A stretch of DNA of 64,000 nt from Pseudomonas phage vB_PaePA10145phi1_MKR2. This document shows positions 28,513-28,862 of the stretch, piece by piece. The translations under genes were made by a program, and so were the position numbers. Under the pieces are notes generated by a model. That model did not search any database. It saw only the letters and a list, made by a program, of their open reading frames with translations, and was not told the origin of the DNA. The DNA lies in sequence record PV565008.1. One strand, given 5' to 3'. Numbering within the stretch: position 1 is the first letter of the stretch; each line of letters begins with the position of its first letter.

Positions 28513-28569
28513 TGCATTTTTCCTTAAGGGGTATGTAAATATAACTCTAAGTCATAAGATTAGCTAACG

Positions 28570-28785
28570 AATAAAAATACGCACAGTGCAATGATATAGA
28601 GCAAGGCAGTTTGCGTAAAACGCACTGCACTTTAAGGGGGTGATCCAGTCGTAAATAAACCGGGGTACTAAAGTATCGTCAGGAACGACACGAACCCCAA
28701 CTACGGTGCCTTGCTACTCACCGACCTCTAGATAGGGGTCGGACCTATTACATTAAAGGAGCCCACCAGGGGCTCCTTTATGCCA
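28570..28785 (+). ncRNA. Candidate structured non-coding RNA ending in a rho-independent terminator (function unknown)
   Basis: ORF-free 350-bp divergent intergenic region. Nested complementary segments: GCAAGGCA 28602-28609 pairs with TGCCTTGC 28708-28715; GCAG-TGCG/CGCA-CTGC forms a hairpin; GGGGT pairs with ACCCC. Ends with GGAGCCC-acca-GGGCTCC + TTTAT, although no plus-strand gene lies upstream. Confidence 0.35.
28758..28780 (+). terminator. GGAGCCC-acca-GGGCTCC + TTTAT
   Basis: 7-bp GC stem and U-tail; no plus-strand CDS upstream. Confidence 0.65.
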
Positions 28786-28800
28786 TTCATTATAAATTAA

Positions 28801-28819
28801 TTTAAATCTATATTACAGG
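28801..28819 (+). promoter_or_regulatory. Conserved phage promoter element (type A variant): TTTAAATCTATATTACAGG
   Basis: TCTATATTACA core, 44 nt upstream of ATG 28863. Confidence 0.55.
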
Positions 28820-28862
28820 ATTACCATAAAGATATTTATCCTTTTATAATGAGGAAAAGATT

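Follow-up and report, generated by a model that had tools for sequence, protein, structure and literature searches.

What occupies the intergenic gap between PHIKZ203, the SNF2 helicase gene, and PHIKZ204 in phiKZ? The gap was analyzed within a window of 64,000 nucleotides from Pseudomonas phage vB_PaePA10145phi1_MKR2 (PV565008.1). The window matches phiKZ at 100% identity, and a phiKZ coordinate equals the window position plus 184255. The initial annotation saw no credible ORF in this 350-bp stretch, and our scan of positions 28513–28862 found none of at least 30 aa on either strand. It read the stretch as a divergent promoter region holding a structured non-coding RNA with its own terminator, and this reading is borne out by covariation in related phages and by a mapped 3′ end, T095. 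The annotation missed the most informative feature of the RNA, an invariant single strand complementary to the 3′ end of 16S rRNA. With this segment, the general idea of an sRNA becomes a specific mechanism that can be tested.

Promoters, ends, and strand of the RNA gene

The locus is divided into the following features.

28513–28552, minus strand: 5′ UTR of the PHIKZ203 (SNF2 helicase) mRNA, about 40 nt, delimited by the P107 start site and the ATG at 28512
28553–28564, minus strand: late promoter of the helicase operon, GCTAATCTTATG, with the G at 28553 as the start site
28570–28599, plus strand: putative RNA-gene promoter of the phiKZ middle type, consisting of AATAAAAATAC (28570–28580), a 9-nt spacer, and AATGATATAG (28590–28599)
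28599–28782, plus strand: non-coding RNA, defined by its CM match, the mapped 3′ end, and the lack of a conserved ORF
28751–28782, plus strand: phiKZ-type terminator, CAUUAAAGGAGCCC acca GGGGCUCCUUUAUG, with the CAUAAA–GC hairpin–UUUAUG motif
28807–28816, plus strand: putative early-type promoter core, TCTATATTAC, of the PHIKZ204 block, outside the RNA

The leftward helicase promoter that had been expected in this region is the published late promoter P107. Its start site is phiKZ 212808 on the minus strand, which is window position 28553, and the supplement of Putzeys et al. lists it as 'late promoter, Ceyssens et al. 2014'. The late-promoter sequence CATAAGATTAGC is kept in Psa21, D6, and a 307-kb IMG/VR contig. 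At the other end of the gap, the early-type promoter of the PHIKZ204 block is predicted to start near 28823 and to give a 5′ UTR of about 39 nt. Exact copies of TCTATATTAC follow terminators by about 25 nt at both 44333 and 59489, and the mapped early promoters P091, P122, and P125 share its core and spacing. Self-BLAST of the region against the window returned only this shared terminator/early-promoter cassette and revealed no repeats or iterons. An attenuator or riboswitch in the 5′ UTR of PHIKZ204 was rejected because the early-type promoter lies downstream of the element and the downstream neighbors vary among phages.

The RNA locus matches the CM with 127 bits (E = 1e-32), and this is the sole match in the window. 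Measured to the mapped 3′ end at 28746, the RNA is about 148 nt long; counted through the second hairpin, it is about 184 nt. Its promoter class and start site (~28599–28601) are predictions from the sequence. The 11-mer AATAAAAATAC is identical in the mapped middle promoter P116, and an A-rich stretch with TAC(T) lies 14–16 nt 5′ of an invariant TATAG in 13 of the 14 homologues. Mapped middle promoters start 18–21 nt past the C of TAC, and the motif has been described (Wicke 2020). The ONT-cappable-seq tables list no plus-strand start site at the locus. They do place the plus-strand termination site T095 at phiKZ 213001, window position 28746, 4 nt past hairpin P4 (Putzeys et al. bioRxiv supplement).

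The RNA is assigned to the plus strand on the basis of T095, the middle-type promoter motif, and its hairpin loops: 10 GNRA and 6 UUCG loops are counted on the plus strand of the homologues and none on the minus strand. Two further strand tests were not decisive, one comparing G·U with A·C pairs on the CM alignment (15 versus 14) and the other comparing plus- and minus-strand folding energies across lineages (Wilcoxon p = 0.15). The GC hairpin followed by TTTAT that the initial annotation placed at the end of the region is present (hairpin with TTTATG, 28755–28782) as one of 11 strand-instances of the CAUAAA/UUUAUG motif in the window, of which 3 lie 9–12 nt past an ORF end. Its loop is UUCG in 6 of 11 lineages (7 of 14 homologues) on the plus strand and in none on the minus strand. 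A generic intrinsic-terminator scan, which needs at least five U residues, found nothing; such sigma-70 and terminator scans are uninformative here, since the host polymerase plays no part in phiKZ transcription and the U tracts of phiKZ terminators are short.

Homologues in phiKZ-related phages

CM and nhmmer searches yielded 14 homologous sequences from 11 lineages of phiKZ-related Pseudomonas jumbo phages: Phikzvirus, the PA1C group, PhiPA3, 201phi2-1/Viktualia, Phabio, Psa21, D6, Noxifer, and three metagenomic jumbo contigs. The sources are Pseudomonas phages or unassigned metagenomic contigs, and the known hosts are all Pseudomonas with an identical 16S tail. Every homologue occupies an ORF-free gap adjoining the SNF2 helicase gene, and ORF comparison of the aligned sequences found no conserved ORF. 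Downstream of the element lie gp204-like genes, the helicase gene, or convergent genes, depending on the phage. The RNA gene is inverted relative to the helicase gene in PhiPA3 with its internal polarity kept, which identifies it as an independent unit. No homologue was found beside the helicase gene in relatives that infect Xanthomonas, Ralstonia, Erwinia, or E. coli, with RTH11, RP12, Ea35-70, and Goslar among the phages covered, or in EL and OBP. The nhmmer and CM searches found none in bacterial genomes, and only jumbo-phage homologues were retained. Loose pattern scans of IMG/VR, metagenomes, and bacterial genomes gave mostly chance matches, and the CM matches in L010 and L152 are coding sequence.

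A conserved three-way junction

Positions 28575–28785 of the plus strand fold with a minimum free energy of −75.3 kcal/mol compared to −54.7 ± 4.6 kcal/mol for shuffled sequences (z = −4.5), and none of 200 shuffles was as good. In the 14-sequence alignment, 87.6% of the cells are paired and 14 of 22 pairs have changed on both sides. None of 500 shuffles reached the observed value, and slid controls were 29–44% paired. These data support a consensus fold in which P1, P2, and P3, a stem capped by a GNRA hairpin, form a three-way junction that is followed by P4 and the terminator. The elements, all on the plus strand, are as follows.

28600–28608: P1 5′ strand, AGCAAGGCA, pairing with 28707–28715
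28606–28628: P2 hairpin, GCAG..UGCG uaaaa CGCA.CUGC, conserved, with covarying inner pairs (CG/UA/UG)
28633–28651: anti-16S block, UAAGGGGGUGAUCCAGUCG, with the core AGGnGGUGAUCCA at 28635–28647 invariant in 14 of 14 homologues
28662–28698: P3 domain, a GGGGU/ACCCC outer helix around P3b (28676–28688, UCGU-CAGGA-ACGA), covarying
28699–28706: J3/1, AACUACGG, conserved in the alignment
28707–28715: P1 3′ strand, UGCCUUGCU, pairing with 28600–28608
28721–28742: P4 hairpin, CCGACCUCU agau AGGGGUCGG, in 13 of 14 homologues, with T095 4 nt after it

P1 is present in all 14 homologues with 9–13 bp, and the position flanking CAAGG/CCUUG is G-C, C-G, U-A, A-U, or G·U depending on the lineage. It corresponds to the GCAAGGCA/TGCCTTGC pairing of the initial annotation, which lies at 28601–28608 and 28707–28714; like the other pairings listed there, it is shifted by about 1 nt from its first placement. 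The GCAG-TGCG/CGCA-CTGC hairpin reported there is P2, whose outer GCAG competes with the inner end of P1. The GGGGT (28662–28666) and ACCCC (28694–28698) segments form the outer helix of P3, which is kept in relatives with wholly different sequences; each of the 5 outer pairs and of the 4 P3b pairs has changed on both sides. Conservation in relatives had been suggested as a check on these pairings, and they are conserved and covary in the 14 sequences from 11 lineages. Both arms of the proposed CAGTGC/GCACTG pairing (28584–28589 with 28622–28627) are present, but the pairing is not supported: the 5′ arm falls within the promoter spacer, and no relative conserves it. Most relatives cap P3b with a GNRA loop (GGGA, GAGA, GUGA), whereas phiKZ and SL2 have CAGGA and Phabio has GGGAA. 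P4 shows compensatory changes, for example UUGG/CCGA in 201phi2-1 versus UCAAC/GUUGA in Viktualia. With the raw MAFFT alignment as input, RNAalifold placed P1 and P4 out of register and suggested a UAAGG:CCUUG pairing. UAAGG could pair with CCUUG instead of P1 forming, and this pairing was kept only as a possible alternative conformer.

An invariant strand complementary to the 16S 3′ end

The core of the anti-16S block is the sole invariant unpaired segment of the RNA, in a core alignment (A2) with a mean column identity of 73%. The block is the reverse complement of the 16S 3′ end (...CGGCUGGAUCACCUCCUUA-3′), with G·U wobbles in phiKZ. Complementarity extends over 13 invariant nt, and over 19 nt in phiKZ. 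The sole variable position is G or A, either of which pairs with the 16S U. For the Pseudomonas 16S 3′ end we used the commonly given sequence, together with universal primer 1525R, and checked it against Acinetobacter and Salmonella 16S only. A 34-nt antisense-16S query gave 100% matches to annotated 16S rRNA 3′ ends. Other phage BLAST matches to antisense 16S were discarded as host rRNA contamination in the records, including Aeromonas phage AP1, and a match in phiKMV-like phages is a 21-nt coincidence inside the scaffold gene.

The calculated duplex between the phiKZ block and 16S rRNA has an energy of −21.1 kcal/mol with the 13-nt free tail and −38.2 kcal/mol with the last 23 nt. Every lineage falls within −20 to −22 and −31 to −41 kcal/mol, respectively. 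The block is the strongest anti-16S site in the window by 12 kcal/mol (next site, −26.0; mean, −10.0; sd, 3.5), and the Shine-Dalgarno (SD) sites of phiKZ genes reach −10.6 kcal/mol at most. No alternative target of at least 10 nt was found for the block within the window. The block has no conserved pairing partner within the RNA; in single-sequence folds it is partly held in weak local pairings that cost 3.6–8 kcal/mol to open. In several lineages the block reaches 6 nt into the 3′ strand of helix 45. Five of 11 lineages also carry 8–10 nt complementary to the neighboring 16S 790 loop, compared to 0.22 expected. The 790 loop is the IF3 and subunit-joining surface and is adjacent to the anti-SD tail.

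Class of the RNA

ARAGORN reported no tRNA or tmRNA gene in the whole window, which excludes the degenerate tRNA that had been raised as a concern. The Rfam 15 scan suggested at the same time gave best scores of 16–20 bits against thresholds of 50–75 (E of at least 1.6). The RNA was rejected as a 6S RNA since its consensus is a three-way junction rather than a rod with a central bubble, and it has no Rfam 6S match. The conserved, unpaired complementarity instead suggests an anti-SD-binding, or 30S-binding, RNA, a class that is proposed here and is not an established family. Full-text literature searches found no prior description of the RNA. It is not among the published phiKZ ncRNA candidate coordinates of the supplement, where its T095 3′ end alone is listed, and the Grad-seq supplement text has no entry for the locus.

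Alternative explanations

One alternative, which we judge unlikely, extends the target to the whole 3′ minor domain of 16S. The block (16S nt ~1524–1542) and J3/1 with the P1 3′ strand (~1497–1514) would both pair and open helix 45; either nascent or immature 16S would be hit and 30S maturation blocked, or the long duplexes would be passed to RNase III, which would cut off the anti-SD tail. CUACGGyGCCUUG(n)UAC is collinear with the antisense of 16S CAAGGUAGCCGUAG, local alignments reach p < 0.03 against shuffles in 9 of 14 sequences (19 of 22 positions in PA1C), and the core resembles antisense 16S with the P3 domain in place of the helix 45 tip; the extension of the block into helix 45 fits as well. 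However, CCUUG is locked in the covarying helix P1 in the RNA's own fold, and 16S nt 1497–1529 are base-paired and protein-bound in the mature 30S. The similarity of the J3/1–P1 segment to antisense 16S is weak in 201phi2-1, Viktualia, and Phabio, and the lineages have a common ancestry and hence amount to one observation. Could the block instead be an ordinary, very strong ribosome-binding site, serving a tiny peptide or loading ribosomes in cis for the downstream gene? AAGGAGGUGAUC is the textbook 'perfect' SD sequence, the PhiPA3 element lies 58 nt 5′ of the helicase ATG in the same orientation, and the automatic annotation of Viktualia and HPP-Temi put small CDSs across the element. Yet no AUG, GUG, or UUG is found 4–12 nt past the GGnGG core in the aligned sequences of any lineage. 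The sole GUG within the block has zero spacing, and its frame closes after 4–25 codons at non-homologous places. In phiKZ and SL2 the RNA element has no ORF of at least 15 aa on either strand. Between the block and whatever comes next stand one or two hairpin terminators, and the downstream neighbor varies by phage. A translated leader or small ORF was rejected for want of a properly spaced start codon and a conserved reading frame, and we consider a ribosome-binding site in general to be very unlikely.

The block might also be a protein-binding or tertiary motif, its 16S match being incidental or a mimic of a ribosome-binding site for S1, bS21, IF3, RsmA, or a phage factor. OLE RNA does bind bS21 through an SD/anti-SD mimic (PMC12054373), and phiKZ encodes ribosome-binding proteins such as gp014. 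A 3-bp mini-hairpin, GGn-GGUGA-UCC, can form in the block; it is marginally stable and shows no covariation. We regard this reading as quite improbable: 13 invariant nt that match 16S base for base, with only G/A opposite U varying, exceed what protein sites usually need. A single GGA-type motif does not make an Rsm/Csr sponge, which was rejected because multiple loop GGA motifs are absent and only the phiKZ P3b loop (CAGGA) fits, the relatives having GAGA or GUGA. Little credence is given to a functional minus strand, which would imitate the 16S 3′ end (GGAUCACCCCCUUAA) and titrate mRNA SD sequences, or would be simply a long 5′ leader. The minus strand also folds well (z = −3.3), the energy and G·U/A·C comparisons were not decisive, and the terminator is nearly palindromic, but the helicase start site at 28553 maps outside the element and the loops (16 versus 0), the conserved promoter motif, and T095 are all on the plus strand. 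It is equally improbable that the locus acts as DNA, whether in replication initiation as an origin, in packaging, or as a dense cluster of promoters, and that its RNA structure is a by-product. Transcription diverges here beside the helicase gene, and three promoters lie within 300 bp. Against this, compensatory changes keep the RNA helices while the primary sequence is replaced, repeats and iterons are lacking, the invariant part has a specific RNA target, and the internal polarity is kept upon inversion in PhiPA3. The origin that the initial annotation had entertained gains no support.

Proposed function

The extent and conservation of the complementarity suggest that this phage RNA probably binds host ribosomes directly through the 16S 3′ tail. 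The reading that we favor, with somewhat better than even confidence, is a structured RNA that occupies the anti-SD tail of the 30S subunit as a decoy or modulator; both the 30S binding and its physiological consequence are what we infer from the sequence. The phage non-virion RNA polymerase would transcribe the RNA rightward from the middle-type promoter to give a product of ~150–185 nt. The three-way-junction scaffold and the one or two 3′ hairpins would leave the long joining strand unpaired, with its 13 nt (19 in phiKZ) free to pair with the host 16S tail and its extension entering helix 45 by a few bases. Once exported to the cytoplasm, the RNA would anneal to the tail of free 30S far more tightly than any mRNA ribosome-binding site. 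The RNA-bound 30S would not form a productive initiation complex because a start codon and ORF are absent 3′ of the block, and the RNA would therefore act as a ribosome-binding decoy or modulator. Either 30S would be titrated from SD-dependent initiation, or it would be marked or tethered. The genes of phiKZ carry ordinary SD sites, and translation of the phage's own mRNAs would therefore suffer too from a general anti-SD sponge, which counts against the decoy model.

A more elaborate reading is tentative and, in our view, rather doubtful: a dedicated antisense RNA against the host 30S that seizes the anti-SD tail, invades helix 45, and in several lineages pairs with the 790 loop, thereby reprogramming, parking, or inactivating the subunit. 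Such an RNA would be a translation counterpart of 6S RNA and was possibly born from captured antisense host rDNA.

In phiKZ-like phages the DNA is shielded in a protein nucleus, and every mRNA must be exported to host ribosomes. To our knowledge, only proteins, such as gp014, have been implicated so far in the control that these phages gain over host translation. A conserved phage RNA that pairs with the anti-SD tail would, if true, be a new class of host-takeover factor, and we know of no earlier natural trans-acting RNA at the anti-SD rRNA site. Ribosome binding could also explain why the RNA is absent from a screen that sought ncRNAs by non-ribosomal sedimentation. The idea is testable with tools established for phiKZ, namely Grad-seq, Northern blots, antisense-oligomer knockdown, and cryo-EM of 30S complexes. 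In practical terms, synthetic biology would gain a 30S-binding module that is compact and already evolved, and Rfam would gain a defined family.

Comparison with known systems

The proposed interaction resembles SD:anti-SD pairing by mRNAs in its purine-rich strand ((A)AGGAGGUGAUC), its 16S 3′ tail partner, and its location on the 30S platform. The SD sites of genes span 4–9 bp (at most −10.6 kcal/mol in phiKZ), whereas the block spans 13–19 bp at −21 to −38 kcal/mol. The block is also followed by no start codon or ORF and lies in a stand-alone structured RNA with a predicted promoter and a terminator. In work attributed to Mawn et al. in J Bacteriol in 2002, artificial SD-rich RNAs reportedly deplete free 30S subunits in E. 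coli. Those RNAs are likewise untranslated and SD-like; they bind 30S and lower the initiation pool, an experimental precedent for the 30S-depleting mechanism proposed here. The RNA of Mawn et al. is engineered and repetitive, whereas the phiKZ RNA occurs naturally, is encoded by a phage, has a single site, and is both structured and conserved.

OLE RNA is also non-coding, has an SD/anti-SD-derived sequence, and is tied to the translation apparatus through the binding of ribosomal protein bS21 by its P6 element (PMC12054373). In OLE the anti-SD (CCUCCU) is paired in cis to the SD-like strand and a free protein is bound. The phiKZ RNA, in contrast, exposes an unpaired SD-side strand suited to rRNA pairing, and the two share no sequence or structural homology (no Rfam match). 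The phiKZ RNA is in the size class of 6S RNA (~180 nt) and, like it, would be a stable RNA that occupies a core machine by imitating its nucleic-acid substrate. 6S RNA mimics open promoter DNA for RNA polymerase with a rod that has a central bubble, whereas the phiKZ RNA would mimic an mRNA ribosome-binding site for 30S with a three-way junction. A Haloferax tRNA-Val fragment is a ribosome-associated ncRNA that competes with mRNA on the small subunit, and the initiation tools of phages (phage-encoded bS21, T4 RegB, which cuts GGAG, and phiKZ gp014) are all proteins. The fragment and these tools have in common that they modulate the small subunit or the initiation step in stress or infection; unlike the proposed phiKZ RNA, none is known to use long Watson-Crick pairing with the anti-SD tail.

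The published ncRNA candidates of phiKZ and 201phi2-1 are 5′UTR_gp40, 3′UTR_PHIKZ298, the PHIKZ221/302 5′UTR RNAs, and sRNA005 upstream of gp182/gp277. Like the RNA described here, they are short structured transcripts from the same phages, bounded by terminators of one shared type, and conservation across genera is seen for some of them. Those candidates are UTR-derived and lie at other loci, whereas this RNA is intergenic, has its own predicted promoter, and is the sole one with a recognizable target.

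A conserved RNA family in the PHIKZ203/PHIKZ204 gap

The window is Pseudomonas phage phiKZ: a 601-nt query from this region matches AF399011/NC_004629, the phiKZ genome, at 100% identity, and coordinates convert as phiKZ = window + 184255. The initial annotation read the gap between PHIKZ203 and PHIKZ204 as containing a candidate structured RNA; its observation is confirmed, and its interpretation is supported by a conserved RNA family whose helices are kept in relatives. No ORF of at least 30 aa was found in the gap, and the plus strand of 28575–28785 folds at −75.3 kcal/mol compared to −54.7 ± 4.6 kcal/mol for dinucleotide shuffles (z = −4.5). 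The Rfam and tRNA searches that the annotation had called for were run; the gap matched no Rfam family, and neither a tRNA nor a tmRNA was found in the region. All the pairings that the annotation listed occur, at positions shifted by about one base; the CAGTGC/GCACTG pairing is not kept in relatives. The leftward helicase promoter it had placed in the gap corresponds to the published late promoter P107. Outside the RNA gene the gap is unremarkable, holding P107 and an early-type promoter core before PHIKZ204.

Features of the gap (window coordinates)
28512, minus strand: ATG of PHIKZ203, an SNF2-type helicase; left border
28553–28564, minus strand: late promoter of the helicase, GCTAATCTTATG, TSS 28553; matches published P107
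28600–28608 with 28707–28715, plus strand: helix P1, present in 14/14 sequences
28633–28651, plus strand: anti-16S block UAAGGGGGUGAUCCAGUCG, reverse complement of the 16S rRNA 3' end ...CGGCUGGAUCACCUCCUUA-3', with G•U wobbles
28751–28782, plus strand: second hairpin, fitting the standard phage terminator CAUAAA – GC hairpin – UUUAUG
28807–28816: early-type promoter core TCTATATTAC, preceding PHIKZ204
28863, plus strand: ATG of PHIKZ204; right border

BLAST searches with the gap returned near-identical phiKZ isolates and, across its central part, matches of 70–85% identity in the distant relatives PhiPA3, the PA1C group, Phabio, and 201phi2-1, whose proteins are only ~50% identical. The matching part in each of these relatives falls in an ORF-free gap of 260–320 nt, no more than 2 kb from the helicase start. 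A covariance model built from a 10-sequence core alignment, used together with nhmmer, recovered three metagenomic jumbo-phage contigs (290 kb, 307 kb, and a 27-kb fragment). With filters off, these searches also recovered Psa21 (52 bits), D6 (46 bits), and Noxifer (22 bits), in every case in the gap that lies immediately upstream of the helicase. The model gave a single hit in the 64-kb window, no hits in 120 bacterial-genome loci, and none beside the helicase of the Xanthomonas, Ralstonia, Erwinia, and E. coli chimalliviruses, EL, or OBP. Members are therefore known from 11 lineages of the phiKZ/201phi2-1/PhiPA3/Psa21/Noxifer clade, and the family is a new one, conserved among nucleus-forming Pseudomonas jumbo phages. 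The RNA and helicase genes are divergent or further apart in all lineages except PhiPA3 (L001 3002–3183), where the RNA gene is inverted, runs in the same direction as the helicase, and has its terminator end 58 nt before the helicase ATG (3241). Because this copy points toward the helicase and not away from it, the RNA gene behaves as an independent unit.

Small 'hypothetical protein' CDSs are auto-annotated over the RNA in Viktualia (L125 1514–1603) and HPP-Temi (L127 1414–1832); these lack conservation and probably are not genuine. The neighboring helicase gene is interrupted in some relatives, where the tblastn match falls in two pieces. The match spans 2931 nt in SL2 (L128, MF805716 74235–77165) and 3152 nt in PA1C/BRkr, compared to 2109 nt in phiKZ, and PA1C (L002 208738–211889) has the helicase annotated as two CDSs. 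These spans imply an insertion of ~0.8–1 kb in SL2 and PA1C/BRkr, which may be an intron, an intein, or a homing endonuclease.

Fold and covariation

A four-helix structure is 87.6% paired on a 14-sequence alignment that was fitted to the covariance model, a bias favoring structure. Both sides change in 14 of its 22 pairs, and none of 500 column shuffles reached the observed paired fraction and double changes. Sliding the 3' partners by 1–3 columns as a control lowered pairing to 29–44%, and RNAalifold independently re-found P1, P2, P3, and P3b. In P1, CAAGG/CCUUG is invariant and the flanking pair varies by lineage (G-C, C-G, U-A, A-U, or G•U). The sequence of the P3 outer helix is wholly replaced between lineages (GGGGU/ACCCC, GAUAC/GUAUC, GGUAC/GUACC, GAUUAG/CUAAUC, and AUGAGCGU/(A)UGCUCAU), and the hairpin inside it is capped by GGGA, GAGA, or GUGA. 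The 3' domain after P1 consists of hairpin P4, which has compensatory changes, followed by the terminator.

At its 5' edge the anti-16S block has UAAGG (28633–28637), which can also pair with CCUUG (28710–28714), replacing the P1 5' strand. RNAalifold chose this pairing on the first alignment; its 5 bp are kept without covariation in all lineages except Noxifer, and it may represent an on/off conformer.

Strand, predicted promoter, and transcript ends

Neither the free energies of the two strands nor the counts of G•U versus A•C were decisive for strand. Among the hairpin loops predicted for the 11 independent lineages, the plus strand has 10 GNRA and 6 UUCG tetraloops, and the minus strand has neither type. 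In all lineages except Noxifer, an A-rich run ending in TAC(T) lies 14–16 nt before an invariant TATAG. The phiKZ middle promoter consists of an A-rich repeat and TACT ~22 nt upstream of the TSS (Wicke et al.), and mapped middle promoters start 18–21 nt after the C of TAC (Putzeys et al.). One of these published promoters, P116, shares the identical 11-mer AATAAAAATAC with window 28570–28580. The motif position and the 18–21 nt offset predict a TSS at ~28599–28601. A transcript 3' end on the plus strand, T095, appears in the supplement of Putzeys et al. at phiKZ 213001 (window 28746), four bases beyond P4; the supplement has no plus-strand TSS in the RNA interval, and its ncRNA tables give no coordinates within that interval. 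The tetraloops, the promoter-like motif, and T095 all agree that the RNA lies on the plus strand. To our knowledge, earlier work has caught sight of this RNA without describing it.

The near-palindromic terminator motif CAUAAA – GC hairpin – UUUAU(G) occurs as 11 strand-instances within the window. Terminator-promoter cassettes at 28.8, 44.3, and 59.5 kb carry the exact TCTATATTAC core ~25 nt after the terminator. The CATAAGATTAGC motif of the helicase late promoter is conserved in Psa21, D6, and a metagenomic contig, where it also lies upstream of the RNA gene.

Terminator-motif sites in the window
22098–22125
23924–23955
28758–28782
37540–37565
44279–44307
49014–49038
51538–51574
52259–52283
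59438–59463

Complementarity to the 16S rRNA 3' end

Conservation within the RNA is highest in the strand joining P2 and P3; all 14 sequences share an unchanged AGGnGGUGAUCCA, compared to a column identity averaging 73% across the A2 core alignment. This strand carries the anti-16S block, for which no conserved intramolecular partner was found, and the phiKZ version of the block is essentially universal primer 1525R, AAGGAGGTGWTCCARCC. A search with 34 nt of antisense 16S gave 100% matches to annotated 16S 3' ends. The invariant 13 nt of the block correspond to the single-stranded 16S tail plus two bases, lineage-specific extensions (CCAGCCG, CCAGUCG) carry the match on into the 3' strand of helix 45, and the sole variable base is G or A, facing a U of 16S. 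In every lineage the predicted duplex is −20 to −22 kcal/mol with the 13-nt free 16S tail and −31 to −41 kcal/mol with the last 23 nt of 16S. A scan of the phiKZ window for 16S-tail duplexes placed the block strongest by 12 kcal/mol (−38.2; next −26.0; mean −10.0, SD 3.5), and regions upstream of phiKZ ORFs reach −10.6 at most. No start codon was found at a functional distance from the block and no conserved ORF over the RNA; phiKZ and SL2 lack any ORF of at least 15 aa on either strand. The block has no other target of at least 10 nt in the window.

The likeness to antisense 16S extends further. J3/1 and the P1 3' strand (28699–28718; phiKZ CAACUACGGUGCCUUGCUAC; CUACGGyGCCUUG..UAC) are collinear with the antisense of 16S nt ~1497–1514 (CUACGGCUACCUUGUUACGAC). 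Across the homologous positions of loci L001–L004, L125–L128, L146, L202, L337, and L504–L506, local alignment to antisense 16S gave p < 0.03 in 9/14 sequences, and the PA1C segment matches at 19/22 positions. The RNA core thus looks like an antisense version of roughly the final 50 nt of 16S in which the P3 domain replaces the helix-45 tip. This resemblance suggests that the core may derive from captured rDNA, or that the RNA invades the 16S 3' minor domain more deeply, as an antisense RNA against the whole domain would. The 16S 790 loop adjoins the 3' tail on the 30S platform, and 8–10 nt complementary to it (GGAUUAGAUACCC) are present at three different RNA sites in 5/11 lineages, phiKZ not among them (0.22 lineages expected; 0/2000 shuffles reach the observed count). 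The lineages are not independent, so this count is taken as no more than supportive.

Complements of the 16S 790 loop
PhiPA3 (L001): ~3104–3111
PA1C (L002) and HPP-Temi (L127): J3/1; P4 loop of L127
L003: P4 loop
Viktualia (L125) and L202: between P4 and terminator

Two other likenesses to rRNA were seen in phage records. Many phiKMV-like Pseudomonas phages (e.g. LUZ19 23906–23926) carry, inside the scaffolding-protein gene, a 21-nt stretch 95% identical to antisense 16S (GGTGATCCAGCCGCAGGTTCC region), probably a coding coincidence. In the Aeromonas phage AP1 record (L511, MT713136 233.8–235.5 kb), part of a host rRNA operon (tRNA-Ala, tRNA-Ile, 16S) is present, and its 16S bears the CDS labels 'tape-measure', 'tail sheath', and 'SNF2 helicase'. 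This combination points to an artefact of assembly or annotation in a public phage record.

Proposed function

The RNA would form a rigid three-way junction that displays a long super-Shine-Dalgarno sequence in unpaired form, and it offers nothing to be translated. From this anatomy we infer the 30S anti-SD tail as its binding partner, and the consequences of that binding. The RNA would anneal to the tail and out-compete any mRNA site, with no route to initiation, and a ribosome-binding decoy or modulator is thus the most likely function. The balance tips slightly toward binding of the 16S tail; a specific 'sponge' outcome is less probable than that. The main difficulty for the decoy model is that phiKZ genes carry ordinary SD sites, so the benefit to the phage must come from something other than plain titration, or from its circumstances. 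Timing through the putative middle promoter, dosage, or localization could supply it, as could a switch built on the alternative UAAGG/CCUUG pairing, which would displace P1. The RNA might also tether or mark 30S subunits or deliver a bound protein. A ribosome-bound RNA would be expected to sediment like mRNA, and a Grad-seq screen for non-ribosomal profiles may have missed it for this reason. The proposed action is directly testable with published phiKZ methods.

Comparison with known systems

A literature search that included the phiKZ and 201phi2-1 transcriptome papers found no published description of the RNA, and a 2026 review says on the subject only that phiKZ expresses non-coding RNAs. 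By membership tests the RNA is not a member of any Rfam family, a tRNA/tmRNA, a 6S RNA, an Rsm-type sponge, a translated leader, or a 5' UTR attenuator. SD:anti-SD pairing uses the same chemistry, but the pairing of the phage RNA would be in trans, far longer, and uncoupled from translation. The engineered SD-rich RNAs of Mawn (2002) reportedly deplete free 30S. OLE RNA binds bS21 through an SD/anti-SD mimic, and 6S RNA is a conceptual parallel whose target is RNA polymerase. Base pairing in trans, the action proposed, is a familiar one, and the unfamiliar part is the proposed target, the anti-SD tail of 16S rRNA.
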